41,240 bases of DNA from a virus (Duplodnaviria; Heunggongvirae; Uroviricota; Caudoviricetes): IMG/VR virus record IMGVR_UViG_2541047725_000010. One strand, written 5' to 3'. A program made the translations under genes and the position numbers. Numbering within the stretch: position 1 is the stretch's first letter; each line of letters opens with the position of its first letter. The notes beneath the pieces are model-generated. The model searched no databases, was not told where the DNA came from, and saw nothing but the letters and a program-made list of their open reading frames with translations. Of this stretch, positions 6,019 through 35,746 are shown one piece after another.

Positions 6019-6038
6019 TACTGTATAAATATACAGTT
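6019..6038 (+). promoter_or_regulatory. LexA (SOS) box overlapping the -10 region upstream of gene 6058-6315
   Basis: TACTGTATAAATATACAGTT: CTGT-N8-ACAG, 18/20 to the TACTGTATATATATACAGTA consensus; 20 bp before the GGAG RBS and ATG at 6058. Confidence 0.7.
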
Positions 6039-6057
6039 ATTGCATGGAGAAGATAAG

Positions 6058-6315
6058 ATGCAGCGGTATCACTATCCACTGGAAGACGGATTTACCGAAA
6101 GGATTCACACGCCGGGAGGCGTCAGGTCACTGGTGGAGGGATCGCACTTGATGAAATTACTCCGGGATCTCGATAAGGATGGATTTAATGTCGATGGCCC
6201 ACTTGCCGAACTGACTGCACTGATTAACTACGTCACCAGCTCACAGATGTCTATGCGGGATCTGCAAACACATCTCGACTATTGTGCCGAACAATTACGA
6301 AAACAAACCAGATAA
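6058..6315 (+). CDS. Small protein paralogous to the antirepressor C-terminal domain (SOS-controlled)
   Basis: 85 aa from ATG 6058 (track ORF 6040-6315); aligns by eye at about 50% identity with residues about 160-240 of the adjacent antirepressor (e.g. LMKLLRDLDKDGFNVDGPLAELT vs LMNLLNQLQEDGHDVSGAAAELT). Confidence 0.6.
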   Translation: MQRYHYPLEDGFTERIHTPGGVRSLVEGSHLMKLLRDLDKDGFNVDGPLAELTALINYVTSSQMSMRDLQTHLDYCAEQLRKQTR

Positions 6316-6345
6316 GGTTTGCAATTACCAAGTGGAGTGCTTATA

Positions 6346-6362
6346 TTTACCTTTGAGGTAAA
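6346..6362. promoter_or_regulatory. Operator-like palindrome TTTACC-TTTGA-GGTAAA
   Basis: Same motif family as 5966-5982. Confidence 0.45.
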
Positions 6363-6455
6363 TTTACATCGCACTCCTCTTGTGCCATAGTAATCGGGCA
6401 CTGGCAAAATCCGGTGCCGGGATTGGTCTCCCGGATTACTACAGAGGCACATATG

Positions 6456-6475
6456 CCGCATAAGCGGTTTTTTTT
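6456..6475 (+). terminator. Putative intrinsic terminator after the LexA-controlled small gene
   Basis: Short GC stem CCGC-ataa-GCGG followed by an 8-T run; sits inside a 314-bp hairpin-rich noncoding gap. Confidence 0.4.
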
Positions 6476-6629
6476 ATGTGTAAAGCGCACCTATTCTATG
6501 GTGGGCTGTGTGGGGGCACCGAAAGGTGCGCCGGGTTCCTTTGTAGCCGGTAAGACCAACTCTGCACAGTTCACCACCATCTGATTGGTCTCAGCGGTGG
6601 TGATTAACCTAACTACAAAGGTGATCGCC

Positions 6630-7322
6630 ATGAATACCAAACCTTCCATCTTTTCCTTTGAGTCATCCTGCCAGATCCGTATGTTCATGATTGACGGAGA
6701 ACCTTGGTTTGTCACCAAAGATGTGTGCAATGCTTTGAATATTGATGTTACACAAGCGAGAAAACTTGATAAAAAAGGCTGGAACAAAAAGGGGCTGTAT
6801 TCAATACAGACCCCTGGTGGAATACAAGAACTATCCATCGTTTCAGAATCAGGTCTCTACATCCTTATTCTGCGTTGCAAAGAGGCAATGACTGAGGGAA
6901 CGAGAGCATTCAGATTTCTTGAATGGGTTACAGGCGAGGTTCTTCCTCAGATCCGCCGCACCGGAAGTTACATTAAAAACTCGCTACCGCAGGAAGAACG
7001 CATAAAGATGGTTGCCGACCAGGTAGCCAACGCCACGGCGTCAGCAGTAATGCAGGCGATGAAGATAGAGAACAAAACCTACAACGCCCCGCTGAAGCCC
7101 GGCTACCGCAGCCTGATTCATTCCCCGTCTGGTGTTCTCGGCCTGACGGAGAACTCACTGCTGATGAATCTGCTGAACCAGTTACAGGAAGACGGGCACG
7201 ACGTATCGGGCGCGGCGGCGGAGCTGACCACCATGTTCTGCTACATCGTCGGTGTGAGCAAATGCCTGCGTGATATCCAGACGCACGCGGAGTACATCAA
7301 CGACAAAGCAGGGTTCTTCTGA
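6630..7322 (+). CDS. Phage antirepressor, BRO-N N-terminal domain with KilA-C/Ant-type C-terminal domain
   Basis: 230 aa from ATG 6630 (AAGGTG RBS); N-terminal FSFESSCQIRMFMIDGEPWFVTKDVCNALNI is a BRO-N signature (from memory). Confidence 0.75.
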   Translation: MNTKPSIFSFESSCQIRMFMIDGEPWFVTKDVCNALNIDVTQARKLDKKGWNKKGLYSIQTPGGIQELSIVSESGLYILILRCKEAMTEGTRAFRFLEWVTGEVLPQIRRTGSYIKNSLPQEERIKMVADQVANATASAVMQAMKIENKTYNAPLKPGYRSLIHSPSGVLGLTENSLLMNLLNQLQEDGHDVSGAAAELTTMFCYIVGVSKCLRDIQTHAEYINDKAGFF

Positions 7323-7393
7323 CGGGCGGCGGCACAGGGATGTGCCTTTAAATAATTCTGTACAGATTGCAGACTGGGGGTGAATAGCGTACT

Positions 7394-7410
7394 ATTACCT
7401 TAAAGGTAAA
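7394..7410. promoter_or_regulatory. Operator-like palindrome ATTACC-TTAAA-GGTAAA
   Basis: 41 bp upstream of the ATG at 7452. Confidence 0.45.
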
Positions 7411-7451
7411 CCTGTTTTTATTTTATACCTGTAACTTACCGGAGATTAAAG

Positions 7452-7778
7452 ATGACAAAACTTGGATTCGTGATGAGAGGTCCGGTAAGAAGCGGAACTC
7501 ATGCAAAGCGTAGCAAGAGTCGTATTTTTACTGGTAAGGTTGTAGCACGTAAATCAGCTATTGGCTCGTTCAATAGTGAAAATGCGGCATTGCGCCATAT
7601 TTTTATCAGCACAAAGCCAAGAGCATCCGCTGATGTGCATACAATGACTATTCCTATCACAAAGAATATAAAGCGGATAAAAAAGCTCTCATCTGCAGAA
7701 TCAAAAGAGATATCTTTCCGCCAGCTTAACTCATTAGAAACGCATATGAAGGAAGAGGAATTCGATGTTTTTGAGTGA
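7452..7778 (+). CDS. Basic hypothetical protein, upstream partner of a toxin-like gene
   Basis: 108 aa; strong GGAG RBS; Lys/Arg-rich N-terminus; no family recognised; 14-bp overlap with the next gene. Confidence 0.5.
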   Translation: MTKLGFVMRGPVRSGTHAKRSKSRIFTGKVVARKSAIGSFNSENAALRHIFISTKPRASADVHTMTIPITKNIKRIKKLSSAESKEISFRQLNSLETHMKEEEFDVFE

Positions 7779-8277
7779 GTATAGCGGGAAGGTTATACCT
7801 ACTGGTGAGTTTAAAACTGATGACTTTCTGATTTCGCTAAAAGATGCTTTTAAACAACACTGGCGTCATGGTCATCATCCTGATCTGGGAAAAGATACTC
7901 TTTTTGAAAGACCAGACGAAGTATTAGGTTTCCATCTCAGAAAGGTTCATGTCAATATTGGTGAATATGCATCATATTCATACTCATGTACTGAACAGTG
8001 TTGGGATGAGTGGTCATATGGATTGATTGATGAACAAGGAAATTACAGGCCAAAACCAACCAGTAACGCATATCTCATATATGCAGTCAATGAAATAAGA
8101 GATGCAGCCTTACTAGCTTATTGGGACCCGCCCGCACACACCAAAGCTAACGCAAAAGTTTGGATGGATTCCGTATTGAATTTCACAAAATTATTTCATG
8201 AACGAACGAATACAGCTCCACTTAGTAGAAATGTTTATCCGTGGGATTATTCGTACAAATCCAAAAAGCCTGCATAG
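7765..8277 (+). CDS. YafO-like toxin-family protein (putative ribosome-dependent mRNA interferase)
   Basis: 170 aa; AAGGAAGAGG RBS inside the upstream gene; by-eye similarity to E. coli YafO recalled from memory (G[KR]D-x-L[FY], RKVHVNI vs ERVAHIHL, AYLIYAV vs AHLVYCQ); unverified. Confidence 0.45.
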   Translation: MFLSEYSGKVIPTGEFKTDDFLISLKDAFKQHWRHGHHPDLGKDTLFERPDEVLGFHLRKVHVNIGEYASYSYSCTEQCWDEWSYGLIDEQGNYRPKPTSNAYLIYAVNEIRDAALLAYWDPPAHTKANAKVWMDSVLNFTKLFHERTNTAPLSRNVYPWDYSYKSKKPA

Positions 8278-8358
8278 TAGTTTTTTATGGACGAAACAAA
8301 AGTCAGTGCTACACTCATTGACGCCACATTGAGGTGGATTATAGATGGAAATTTCACA

Positions 8359-8520
8359 ATGAAAAAAGCATTTGCTGCACTGTTCGTTTTGTTGTCTCTG
8401 GTAGCTTCAACTCAGGCCTTTGCCGGTCGTTGTCAGCACGACAGCGATACTGCCGCTGACGGCTCCCGCTGCGGTGGGCGTTCTGCGGATTCCCGCCCGG
8501 GCGGCGGTGGCATTCGTTAA
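8359..8520 (+). CDS. Small secreted Cys-containing peptide
   Basis: 53 aa from ATG 8359 (track ORF starts 8287); Sec signal MKKAFAALFVLLSLVASTQAFA then a Gly/Arg/Asp-rich mature peptide of about 31 aa with two Cys. Confidence 0.4.
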   Translation: MKKAFAALFVLLSLVASTQAFAGRCQHDSDTAADGSRCGGRSADSRPGGGGIR

Positions 8521-8525
8521 AAACA

Positions 8526-8543
8526 AGGCCGCGAAAGCGGCCT
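8526..8543 (-). terminator. Intrinsic terminator downstream of the minus-strand gene 8552-8848
   Basis: 7-bp GC stem AGGCCGC-gaaa-GCGGCCT; on the minus strand followed by TGTTTTT; the GTGACATGTCAC palindrome lies immediately beside it. Confidence 0.6.
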
Positions 8544-8555
8544 GTGACATGTCAC
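8544..8555. repeat. 12-bp perfect palindrome GTGACATGTCAC, copy 1
   Basis: Overlaps the TGA stop of gene 8552-8848; identical copy at 28897-28908. Confidence 0.6.
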
Positions 8556-8848
8556 GTCCCTTTTCTGAATGATAGCCATTCGAAAAATGATGACATTCCA
8601 CCGCAGACAATAGCAAAGATGATCCCACCAAAGAAGAGAAGGCCAGCCTGCCACCACTCCCACCGCCATACATCCACAGCGCCAACCATACCAACAATCG
8701 CTCCAACAAATGGAATATAGCTCACGATGAAAGCAATGGGGGCTGCAATTATCCAGTGCAATCCCCACCATGATTCAAGCCCAGCCATAATTGCTGCCAA
8801 CTGAAAAAGACCAACGACGATATAAACAATGAATCCTATAGCTTGCAT
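8552..8848 (-). CDS. Small integral membrane protein
   Basis: 98 aa, three hydrophobic helices, Trp-rich; follows the last internal virion protein gene. Confidence 0.55.
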   Translation of the reverse strand: MQAIGFIVYIVVGLFQLAAIMAGLESWWGLHWIIAAPIAFIVSYIPFVGAIVGMVGAVDVWRWEWWQAGLLFFGGIIFAIVCGGMSSFFEWLSFRKGT

Positions 8849-25449: not shown

Positions 25450-25526
25450 GTGGCATTAGCTCAGTTGGACAGAGCAACCGCCTTCTAAGCGGTTGGTCGC
25501 AGGTTCGAATCCTGCATGCCACGCCA
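25450..25526 (+). tRNA. tRNA-Arg, anticodon UCU (phage-encoded)
   Basis: Hand-folded cloverleaf: 7-bp acceptor GTGGCAT/ATGCCAC, D-stem GCTC/GAGC, anticodon stem ACCGC/GCGGT with loop CTTCTAA, T-stem GCAGG/CCTGC with GGTTCGAATCC, discriminator G and encoded CCA. Confidence 0.85.
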
Positions 25527-25773: not shown

Positions 25774-26664
25774 ATGCTTGACTTCATCCGTGACATTTAC
25801 TCCTCTTTCCGCCAAGCATCTCTTGAGCGGGTGAAAAGCCCGTTCCTTGGGGCATTTGTTTTTTCCTGGCTTTGCTTTAATTGGCAGATGTTAGCAATTC
25901 TATTTTTTAGTTCTAAGGATATTGAAAAGCGCCTTGCTATTATTAATGGCTCTTTCGGCATCGTCAGCTTTTTAATTGCGCCAATATGCACTACAGCATT
26001 GATAGTTATCCTTTTACCGCAAATTAATAAATTGATTACAATAATACAAGATAAACCTAACTCAGACACAATTGAAATGAGCCTTGCATCTAAAATAAAG
26101 ATCGCCGAACTGCAGCAACTATTAGCAGAAAATGAAGCAAGAAAGAAACTTGCTGATAAAAAAGAAGAACGCTTCATTGAAGAGAATATTATTTCAATAA
26201 AAAAAGACCATGAAAAAGCAATAGATAACCTTAAAGACAAAGAAAGTAAAATCTCAAATCTCACGGACACAATAACTGAACTTCAGAGCAAACTGGTTAA
26301 AGCTGAGGCCACTCTCAAAGTTGAACAGGAGTCAAGATCCCAAGTGCAGAATGAATTGATTATTGAAAAAGAGAACAAGCGGAAATTAGAAGACAACATT
26401 CTGCACCTTAATTTAAGTTTAAAAAAAAACCAATCAGAATTGGCCATTGCAAAAGAAGCCTATGATAATACCTTGATGGCTTATAATGAACTTAACACAA
26501 CATTAAAAAAAGCAGAAAGCTCAATAATAAACTTCAATGCTAACTTTCCTTTTTTAACTGACATAAATAACAGCACCCCAAATACATACTTAAAAATAAA
26601 TAAAAATGCATGGGAGCATTTAGTTAGTTTAAATTTAAGTCTAAAGGAGAAAATACAAAAATAA
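25774..26664 (+). CDS. Membrane-anchored coiled-coil protein (cargo gene, function unknown)
   Basis: 296 aa; two N-terminal TM helices then about 200 aa of heptad-like Lys/Glu/Leu-rich sequence; very AT-rich; opposite strand to the flanking late genes. Confidence 0.6.
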   Translation: MLDFIRDIYSSFRQASLERVKSPFLGAFVFSWLCFNWQMLAILFFSSKDIEKRLAIINGSFGIVSFLIAPICTTALIVILLPQINKLITIIQDKPNSDTIEMSLASKIKIAELQQLLAENEARKKLADKKEERFIEENIISIKKDHEKAIDNLKDKESKISNLTDTITELQSKLVKAEATLKVEQESRSQVQNELIIEKENKRKLEDNILHLNLSLKKNQSELAIAKEAYDNTLMAYNELNTTLKKAESSIINFNANFPFLTDINNSTPNTYLKINKNAWEHLVSLNLSLKEKIQK

Positions 26665-34872: not shown

Positions 34873-34955
34873 AGCTATTGCCTGATATTTATTTCAGATA
34901 ATAAATATTCACCCATAAGGTAACAAAAATCAAGGATAGTTACCTATGGGGTGCA

Positions 34956-35026: not shown

Positions 35027-35611
35027 ATGAAAAGTATCCAGGACGTCCGCAGGCAAAATCTCAACGACTTGATCGACCGTGAATTCAATGGTGTTCAGAC
35101 GCGGATGGCAGAAAAACTTGGAACTCAGGCAAATCTGGTAAACCGCTGGGCTCTTGGCAAGAAGGTTATCGGCGACCAGGTTGCGCGAAAAATTGAAGCT
35201 GCCGCCAATAAACCCCGTAACTGGCTTGATATCGATCGCTCGCTTTCTCAGGAAGGTTTTCAGCCTGTCGGCCCAAGCGACATTGGTCAGCTGGCGGCTC
35301 ACAACCTGGAACGCTGGATGAGCGAAAGCCGCGACCTTTCAACACAGGGAAAACTTCACCGCGCATCCGGCGTCGCCCAGGTGACAATCAGCCGCCTGTT
35401 AAACAATGAGGTCAGCGTTTCCATTTCCACCCTGGAGAATGTTGCATCCGCATTCGGGCGTCACGGCTATGAATTACTGATTCACCCGCACGACCCTGCG
35501 ACCATCAACTATGACCGCTCGCGCTACGCATTGTTACCCGAAACCGAGAAAGCAAAGATCGAAAGTTACATTGAATTTGTCATCAACCAGAACGAAAAAA
35601 ACAAACAATAA
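35027..35611 (+). CDS. Repressor-like regulator with two HTH domains, no recognisable S24 peptidase domain
   Basis: 194 aa; two HTH-like segments (GVQTRMAEKLGTQANLVNRW and ASGVAQVTISRLLNNEVSVS); divergent from the cro-like gene. Confidence 0.6.
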   Translation: MKSIQDVRRQNLNDLIDREFNGVQTRMAEKLGTQANLVNRWALGKKVIGDQVARKIEAAANKPRNWLDIDRSLSQEGFQPVGPSDIGQLAAHNLERWMSESRDLSTQGKLHRASGVAQVTISRLLNNEVSVSISTLENVASAFGRHGYELLIHPHDPATINYDRSRYALLPETEKAKIESYIEFVINQNEKNKQ

Positions 35612-35667: not shown

Positions 35668-35684
35668 ATTACCTTAAGGGTAAT
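35668..35684. promoter_or_regulatory. Operator-like palindrome ATTACC-TTAAG-GGTAAT
   Basis: Perfect half-sites just downstream of the terminator. Confidence 0.5.
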
Positions 35685-35702: not shown

Positions 35703-35746
35703 TTGACACCAAACCAAATACGCATAATCATTACCTCAACGGTAAC
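35703..35746 (+). promoter_or_regulatory. Candidate early promoter (TTGACA ... CATAAT) with operator ATTACC-TCAAC-GGTAAC at its start region
   Basis: TTGACA at 35703-35708, CATAAT at 35723-35728 (short spacer of about 14 bp), palindrome at 35730-35746; drives the plus-strand operon from 35765. Confidence 0.4.

Follow-up and report, generated by a model that had tools for sequence, protein, structure and literature searches.

A mobile toxin-antitoxin-like gene pair in an epsilon15-like Escherichia coli prophage, with a putative phage repressor operator at its promoter

Two small overlapping genes at positions 7452-8277 of an Escherichia coli prophage raise the question of what the pair encodes and which regulator holds its promoter. 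The stretch of DNA analysed, here called the window, is the 41,240-nucleotide (nt) IMG/VR record IMGVR_UViG_2541047725_000010, which is an epsilon15/phiV10-like prophage (Uetakevirus) adjoining yfgI in E. coli and is identical to a stretch of strain 50579417. The gene pair, hereafter the cassette, is interpreted as a mobile toxin-antitoxin-like unit in which a toxin of ribonuclease (RNase) fold would arrest translation, a helix of the partner protein would neutralise the toxin, and the prophage repressor would control transcription; the probability given to this interpretation is roughly 0.6. The cassette would accordingly be a candidate case of toxin-antitoxin transcription entrusted to the lysis-lysogeny switch of a prophage and not to its own antitoxin.

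Gene structure and co-conservation

The cassette comprises two open reading frames (ORFs) which overlap by 14 bp at 7765-7778, both annotated as coding sequences (CDSs) in RefSeq, and each preceded by a Shine-Dalgarno motif:

7452-7778, + strand: partner gene (ORF; RefSeq WP_000163644.1), putative antitoxin of 108 amino acids (aa)
7765-8277, + strand: toxin gene (ORF; RefSeq WP_000479990.1), 170 aa, predicted RelE/HigB fold, divergent YafO subfamily, PHROG 1651
7441-7444, + strand: Shine-Dalgarno sequence GGAG of the partner gene, 7 nt before the ATG; CCGGAGAT is kept in all aligned loci
7755-7758, + strand: Shine-Dalgarno sequence GAGG of the toxin gene, 6 nt before the ATG, within the final codons of the partner

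Two genes with a 14-bp overlap and a ribosome-binding site each had been described in the initial annotation of this DNA, and the ORFs, the RefSeq CDSs and the GGAG and GAGG motifs confirm that description. On the basis of the overlap and the internal Shine-Dalgarno sequence, translation of the toxin is probably coupled to that of the partner. The pair had also been noted as AT-richer than the phage backbone, which is correct: the GC fraction of 7452-8277 is 0.395 versus 0.485 for the prophage, and sliding-window values were 0.37-0.40 within the pair versus 0.50-0.57 in its flanks.

Conservation of the pair in other genomes, a check proposed with the initial annotation, was followed in viral contigs and by exact-protein look-ups, together with species-representative genomes, which gave one locus. 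Another 25 loci, among them loci of E. coli, Serratia and Citrobacter, contain the pair with an unchanged 14-bp overlap (toxin identity 69-100%), and the two genes were strictly co-conserved. Since the identical overlap recurs in all 25 of these loci, linkage of the pair goes beyond chance. Every examined locus with a toxin of the 170-aa subfamily, Serratia aquatilis included, has a 104-120-aa partner homologue upstream with the same overlap, and other subfamilies of the toxin likewise retain a small overlapping upstream gene. The cassette has the make-up of a type II module, i.e. two small co-directional genes, tightly linked and co-inherited, and in four phage contexts unrelated to one another the toxin superfamily travels as a unit of two genes.

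The prophage slot occupied by the cassette

Genes neighbouring the cassette in the window encode the tailspike, a Bro-N antirepressor-type protein and the large internal virion proteins. In phage genome comparison, known phage genomes aligned to the flanks of the region only and not to the cassette. In TL-2011b the equivalent slot is occupied by two overlapping genes, an unrelated one of 59 aa and one of 181 aa; in phiv142-3 it contains other small ORFs, in phiV10 it is empty, and epsilon15 likewise has no cassette there. Among 5426 complete E. coli genomes, the slot flanks were present in 540, the cassette in 69 (all copies at least 99% identical) and the TL-2011b-type cassette in 61. As AT-rich cargo, the pair occupies a variable slot bounded by the antirepressor region and by a small lipoprotein gene of the phage backbone. 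The slot represents a defined and easily amplified cargo hotspot in a prophage group common to E. coli, Klebsiella, Serratia and Citrobacter.

The 170-aa predicted toxin

The downstream product had been likened to YafO-type toxins, and the likeness is supported, as a distant relationship, by a Pfam match, a profile alignment and a structural model. The 170-aa protein matched PF13957 (YafO_toxin) over model positions 7-100 of 101 with 19.7 bits (E 9.5e-4), the gathering cut-off of the family being 25. All 41 aligned relatives matched the same model (best E 2.9e-6), just one of them having another Pfam match, and some relatives bear a precomputed PF13957 match. When aligned by hhalign, the 41-sequence profile covered residues 11-128 of the 132 in K-12 YafO (112 columns, E 3.3e-4) at a probability of 38%, an alignment both consistent and weak, the target being one sequence. 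Residues in common with K-12 YafO are G42 and D44 (in G-[KR]-D), R59, H62, Y106 and H125, and the YafO-matched positions are invariant or nearly so across the 41 homologues.

The AlphaFold2 model of the toxin (pLDDT 90.2, pTM 0.86) has the RelE-like alpha/beta fold of the RelE/ParE BECR-fold superfamily; a BFVD fold search with the model returned no match at E <= 0.001. PMC11980606 lists YafO as a RelE/ParE BECR-fold family in which the antitoxin gene comes first, and the same order in the cassette supports the YafO-type assignment. In PHROG 1651 (function unknown) the protein is grouped with TL-2011b gp44 (33% identity, E 2e-27).

On these profile matches and the model, the 170-aa protein is accepted as a putative RelE-fold toxin of a distant YafO branch despite the Pfam cut-off. 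The YafO label itself is not new, the PGAP annotation in RefSeq having already called the protein a YafO-family toxin, and as a RelE-superfamily protein the toxin side of the cassette is ordinary. The profile search recommended earlier for both proteins was informative on the toxin side, where PF13957 was reached below its cut-off, and placed the partner in no known family.

The 108-aa partner protein

The upstream protein had been characterised as basic and devoid of the features of RelB, DinJ or YafN, and this characterisation holds: its isoelectric point (pI) is 10.6, it has no RelB, DinJ, YafN or Phd feature, and it matches no family. A Phd/YefM-type cognate antitoxin such as YafN is not what precedes this toxin. 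The charge is unevenly distributed, with a pI of 12.0 for residues 1-60 and of 4.7 for residues 78-108. The N-terminus (MTKLGFVMRG..KR.K.R) is conserved and basic, the C-terminus (SFR.LNSLE..MKEEEFDVFE) is a conserved acidic helix (ending MKEEEFD.FE across relatives), and the middle is variable and contains indels. In the predicted structure (pLDDT 59.7) the sole confident element is the C-terminal helix at 81-107.

Queries of Pfam, NCBIfam, PADLOC and PDB sequences gave nothing usable for the partner, nor for any other partner type searched, and no DNA-binding domain was detected in it by Pfam, NCBIfam, PDB sequence, profile and model searches. The protein falls solely in PHROG 5933 (function unknown), and no more than 11 relatives emerged when 1.84 billion representative proteins were searched exhaustively with a profile. 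The partner has diverged faster than the toxin (41-50% versus 66-82% identity).

The partner is read as an antitoxin because it is small and fast-evolving, ends in a conserved toxin-proximal helix and is coupled to a RelE-fold toxin, and we infer that it represents a new antitoxin family. Neither the family nor its link with this branch of the toxin seems to have been described; literature searches that combined YafO with prophages or with defence gave nothing on the partner family. If confirmed, the partner would be a new type of antitoxin, belonging to an orphan family with very few members.

Accompanying the Klebsiella branch of the toxin (45% identity) is an otherwise different partner of 153 aa, the C-terminal 47 residues of which align to the C-terminal segment of the 108-aa partner (2 of 5000 shuffles reach the real score). 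Within a single phage slot, the toxin lineage has changed its partner three times or more, of which the 108-aa partner is a clean example. Toxins are known to exchange antitoxin partners.

Other relationships were considered and rejected. A YafN-like tail was suggested by hhalign (...MKEEEFDVF against ...MTDDDFNDF of YafN, E 0.06), and the score of a hidden Markov model of 12 partners against YafN was reached by 3667 of 5000 shuffles. Kinship of the 59/60-aa partners with the 108-aa family was not significant, 590 and 100 of 5000 shuffles reaching the real scores. An antisense or RNA antitoxin was not indicated either: Rfam returned nothing in 7300-8600, and minus-strand hits inside the partner gene were at chance level (8 promoter-like against 6.1 expected, and 8 terminator-like against 3.5 expected).

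Candidate promoter and putative operator of the cassette

A candidate promoter was identified upstream of the pair, overlapping a palindrome which recurs through the prophage. The elements involved, including two further promoters with the same arrangement, are:

7367-7395, + strand: cassette sigma-70 promoter (putative), TTGCAG-17-TACTAT, start region covered by the operator
7367-7372, + strand: candidate -35 element TTGCAG, read from the sequence; TTGCA is kept in the homologous loci L005, L021, L023 and L086
7390-7395, + strand: candidate -10 element TACTAT, its final T being the first T of the operator; TATATT or TAATAT in homologous loci
7394-7410, palindromic: operator ATTACCTTAAAGGTAAA, core TTACC-N5-GGTAA at 7395-7409, member of the phage-wide repressor operator set
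6319-6347: isrK-C4-ant promoter, -35 TTGCAA, -10 TATATT ending at 6347, register as in the cassette
35703-35731: early-left promoter, -35 TTGACA, -10 AATCAT ending at 35731, register as in the cassette

The core TTACCTT-A-AAGGTAA at 7395-7409 has perfect 7+7 arms. An operator-like palindrome at 7394-7410 had been pointed out in the initial annotation; the palindrome is genuine, and its status as an operator specific to the module is not upheld, as the window contains the phage repressor motif in 11 exact copies, this one included. In total, TTACC-N5-GGTAA occurs in the window 11 times exactly (5967, 6347, 7395, 25113, 25727, 28804, 32564, 32626, 34957, 35669 and 35731) and 14 times with at most one mismatch (adding 2942, 28786 and 34909), versus 0.64 expected. 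The copies at 34909 and 34957, with a degenerate one at 34940 seen by eye, lie between a divergent cro-like gene and the repressor gene; those at 35669 and 35731 lie past the repressor gene, ahead of the early-left genes.

In the GenBank record of epsilon15, seven sites are annotated as 'protein_bind: repressor, lysogeny', all of the form ATTACC-N5-GGTAAT. The site at 7394-7410 has this form and belongs to a set of the same kind, dispersed over promoters and clustered round the repressor gene. The register, defined as -35, 17 nt, -10, and the last T of the -10 being the first T of the operator, is common to the three promoters listed above. The operator arms before the cassette are kept across diverged loci and the flanks are not, and phiv142-3, a phage without the cassette, has the operator at its slot promoter too. 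Because of the 11 exact copies, the epsilon15 annotation, the shared promoter register and the presence in phiv142-3, the palindrome at 7394-7410 is best read as a putative phage repressor operator placed to block initiation, and not as an antitoxin operator.

Outside the immunity region, copies precede the small terminase gene, occupy the intergenic space upstream of a portal-containing cluster, and lie around a tRNA gene and inside the replication operon. From the distribution of the motif, the phage repressor seems to control many promoters directly, like C1 of phage P1. For annotators of these phages, the palindrome would be labelled as a repressor site, and the small LexA-gated gene described below as the true antirepressor.

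Repressor, antirepressors and a possible SOS link

The regulatory genes on which the proposed control depends are:

35027-35611, + strand: phage repressor with two helix-turn-helix domains and no peptidase domain, homologue of SPC32H Rep
6021-6315, + strand: LexA box (6021-6036) with an 85-aa SPC32H-type antirepressor gene (6058-6315)

Over its full length the repressor is homologous to that of SPC32H (PDB 5D50_A, E 4e-42), and the product of 35027-35611 is the presumable binder of the operator at 7395-7409. The 85-aa ORF 6058-6315, hypothetical in RefSeq, is a homologue of SPC32H Ant (5D50_E, E 3.5e-46). As summarised in a secondary description (PMC9638917), tetrameric Rep binds palindromic sites and is taken apart by Ant. 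The comparison with epsilon15 and SPC32H draws on GenBank annotation, PDB entry names and that description.

A perfect LexA box (CTGTATAAATATACAG) was located at 6021-6036, in the orientation of the cassette and 1.4 kb upstream of it. The cluster had been said to lie downstream of a LexA-controlled promoter. This was not sustained in its original sense: the box precedes the 85-aa antirepressor gene and not the cassette promoter. Direct LexA control of the cassette was rejected, as 7323-7451 contains no LexA-like box and the only good box of the region is that at 6021-6036. Between box and cassette lie the terminator-like hairpins 6455-6468 and 7331-7346, isrK and C4 RNAs, the Bro-N gene and two operator-bearing promoters. 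Any link of the cassette to the SOS response would be indirect, passing from LexA to the antirepressor, the repressor and the operator, and not by read-through.

In this interval, Rfam identified an isrK small RNA at 6398-6474 on the + strand (73.7 bits) and a C4 antisense RNA at 6494-6581 on the + strand (78.6 bits), both above the gathering score. The two RNAs are flanked by the operator-bearing promoter at 6319-6347 on one side and by the Bro-N gene (6630-7322) on the other. Over its C-terminal 74 residues, the Bro-N protein shares 43% identity with the 85-aa antirepressor (E 8e-17). By sequence, the prophage has two predicted antirepressor-domain proteins, one of them LexA-gated and the other behind the C4 RNA. 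The layout of repressor-controlled promoter, c4 RNA and ant resembles immI of phages P1/P7, here in an epsilon15-like podovirus. The hairpin nearest to the cassette is:

7331-7346, + strand: inverted repeat GGCACA-N4-TGTGCC followed by a T/A-rich run, right after the stop of the Bro-N gene

This hairpin is a weak terminator-like element which parts the ant transcript from the cassette.

Proposed function and alternative explanations

The predicted toxin would be an endoribonuclease of RelE/HigB fold, most likely halting translation by cutting mRNA. The partner would be made first, as the antitoxin, with toxin translation coupled to it through the 14-bp overlap, and would neutralise the toxin, most likely with its acidic C-terminal helix (residues about 78-108). 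In the lysogen, the Rep-type repressor would keep the cassette promoter down; after LexA cleavage, the 85-aa antirepressor would break the repressor tetramer and release the cassette together with the early and antirepressor promoters. Expression of the cassette would in this scheme be low in the lysogen and freed with the lytic programme. As far as could be found, the literature contains no description of a repressor switch of this kind governing the promoter of a toxin cassette.

A number of observations weigh against this interpretation. The toxin is not a PF13957 member by the strict Pfam standard, and its alignment to YafO, to one target sequence, has the 38% probability given above. With the poor model of the partner, the mode of toxin binding is a guess. 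In some loci of the 108-aa type the slot operator has 1-2 mismatches, and repression may be leaky. A toxin-antitoxin pair which is silent in the lysogen would bring no obvious benefit. Finally, the palindrome accompanies the 59/60-aa-partner cassettes in lambdoid prophages which share no backbone gene with this phage. It is kept 53-82 nt upstream of these cassettes in 43 of 43 viral loci, the leader being otherwise unalignable. In the lambdoid L039/L084 at 3773 (9773) and L080 at 4762, and in the distant podovirus L035 at 9774, no or almost no other copy lies within 8-20 kb, and the palindrome stands in the same promoter register as in the window. The coding DNA of these cassettes is just 66-72% identical to any other copy, and their leader is unaligned. 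This suggests selection on the palindrome beyond the Uetakevirus backbone, by something other than the Uetakevirus repressor: cassette proteins may bind it, those phages may have repressors of like specificity, or a host factor may bind.

The retention of the palindrome speaks for a classical self-contained operon, in which the partner, alone or with the toxin, binds the palindrome and autoregulates, and the likeness to the phage operator results from ancestry or mimicry. In its favour, the palindrome is retained in all 43 viral loci despite an unalignable leader, and in L039/L084, L080 and L035 as a sole or nearly sole copy in the same register, and residues 1-60 of the partner are very basic (pI 12.0). 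In siphovirus cassettes a different palindrome occupies the equivalent place, as expected of an autoregulated operon. A self-contained operon is harder to reconcile with three unrelated partner types (108, 59/60 and 153 aa) behind one palindrome, with the same palindrome at the phiv142-3 slot promoter, and with 11 copies in the prophage, mostly intergenic and clustered on both sides of the repressor gene. The epsilon15 depositors moreover attribute the motif to the repressor, and no DNA-binding domain was detected in the partner. Autoregulation is on balance considered unlikely, yet worth retaining as the first alternative.

The siphovirus palindrome, TGACG-N4-CGTCA, was observed together with a shared CTCAAA..TGAG element some 30-45 nt before the gene of the 63-aa partner in L036 and L038, where the distant cassettes sit between the tail chaperone and tape-measure genes. 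No recurring palindrome was found in L083, a distant cassette in a Uetakevirus-like backbone.

Joining repression by a phage with the travelling palindrome, the cassette family may carry the Uetakevirus operator in its own promoter into every new setting, lambdoid prophages included, so that a resident repressor or a mimicking partner times toxin release. This idea is speculative and rather improbable; if true, the pair would be an induction-coupled or cross-prophage kill or shut-off switch, and not an autonomous addiction module.

A small abortive-infection module had been offered as a possibility in the initial annotation, and the cassette could in this sense be a lysogen-expressed abortive-infection or superinfection-exclusion moron, in which a labile partner is lost on phage attack and the freed RNase kills the cell. 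The low-GC prophage cargo slot suits such a role, as do the other toxin-antitoxin pairs in adjacent slots of prophages related to this one, such as the DUF1902 protein and HicA of L029, and a lone, sometimes imperfect operator could permit basal expression. RelE/ParE-superfamily toxins have been discussed as defence toxins (PMC11980606). However, neither the two proteins nor the TL-2011b pair had a match in PADLOC-DB 2.0 at E <= 1, leaving the cassette without a link to a known abortive-infection system, and an operator over the start region, in the register of the early-left promoter which must be shut in the lysogen, argues against strong expression in lysogens. Abortive infection is for these reasons a doubtful explanation, of about the same low standing as autoregulation.

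That the pair is no toxin-antitoxin system at all, the RelE-fold protein being either a relic without activity or a lytic factor (for example in RNA processing or in shutting off host mRNA) and the partner a separate nucleic-acid-binding protein, is highly improbable: repressor-gated expression would suit a lytic-phase function, the toxin has a 35-residue insertion and N- and C-terminal extensions not present in YafO, and the partner lacks an antitoxin-family signature, but strict two-gene linkage with overlapping stop and start across unrelated backbones and three partner types is typical of neutralising pairs, the 41 homologues show no variation at the residues shared with YafO, unlike a relic, and many close phage relatives are without the cassette, which is therefore not needed for lytic growth.

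Comparison with known systems

A toxin-antitoxin-like cassette under the prophage repressor may be set beside several described systems. The yafN-yafO pair of K-12 is alike in its antitoxin-then-toxin order, closely packed genes and a link to the SOS response, which for the cassette would be indirect, through antirepressor and repressor; a weak toxin profile alignment extends over nearly the whole of YafO, with the G-[KR]-D, R..H, Y and H positions conserved. The systems differ in toxin length (132 aa in K-12 against 170 aa in the window, at about 21-23% identity), in the antitoxin, YafN being of the Phd/YefM type whereas the window partner is basic and unrelated, and in location, as yafNO belongs to the dinB operon whereas the cassette occupies a prophage slot and has no LexA box at its promoter. 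HigB2 of Vibrio cholerae (PDB 5MJE) and other HigB/RelE/YafQ toxins are only 12% identical in sequence to the window toxin, and their antitoxins differ. Unlike in the window cassette, the gene order of higBA is toxin first (PMC11980606).

The closest counterpart by position is gp45-gp44 of TL-2011b, which shares the slot, the promoter-operator arrangement, a PHROG 1651 toxin homologue (33%), overlapping genes and a RefSeq YafO-family label. It differs by an unrelated 59-aa partner and a 26-bp overlap, and cassettes of this type occur in lambdoid phages also. The epsilon15/SPC32H switch (PDB 5D50) is alike in the repressor and 85-aa antirepressor homologues, the identical operator motif and the LexA box before the antirepressor; epsilon15 and phiV10 differ in having no cassette in the slot. 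The paaR2-paaA2-parE2 operon of E. coli O157 prophages combines a RelE/ParE-superfamily toxin and a small antitoxin without a DNA-binding domain with a separate transcription regulator. The regulator is there the third gene of the operon, whereas the regulator proposed for the window cassette is the master repressor, encoded 27 kb away.

Downstream elements and other observations

Two elements follow the cassette:

8359-8520, + strand: 53-aa signal-peptide/lipoprotein-like backbone gene (phrog_14503), which follows the slot whatever the cargo
8526-8543, no strand assigned: G+C-rich hairpin AGGCCGC-TTTC-GCGGCCT, reported by the scan on the - strand only, where a T run follows the stem

The backbone gene has the same orientation as the cassette and is probably the last gene of its transcription unit. 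A terminator is annotated in phiV10 at the hairpin corresponding to 8526-8543; from its position and symmetry, the hairpin is the probable end of the transcription unit on the + strand also.

In a Klebsiella Uetakevirus-like prophage (L029), a pair encoding a DUF1902 (HicB-like) protein and a HicA toxin was observed at 906-1364, in a neighbouring slot beside the tailspike gene. Slots of this kind gather toxin-antitoxin cargo repeatedly, L029 being the example.

The window reads through at 25774-26664 (+ strand) as an ORF of 296 aa; the RefSeq record, identical in other respects, annotates a CDS of 233 aa there (25774-26475). The difference is a single-base indel, by which later coordinates are shifted by 1 bp. 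A tRNA-Arg gene was identified inside the prophage at 25450-25526 (+ strand), between two operator copies.

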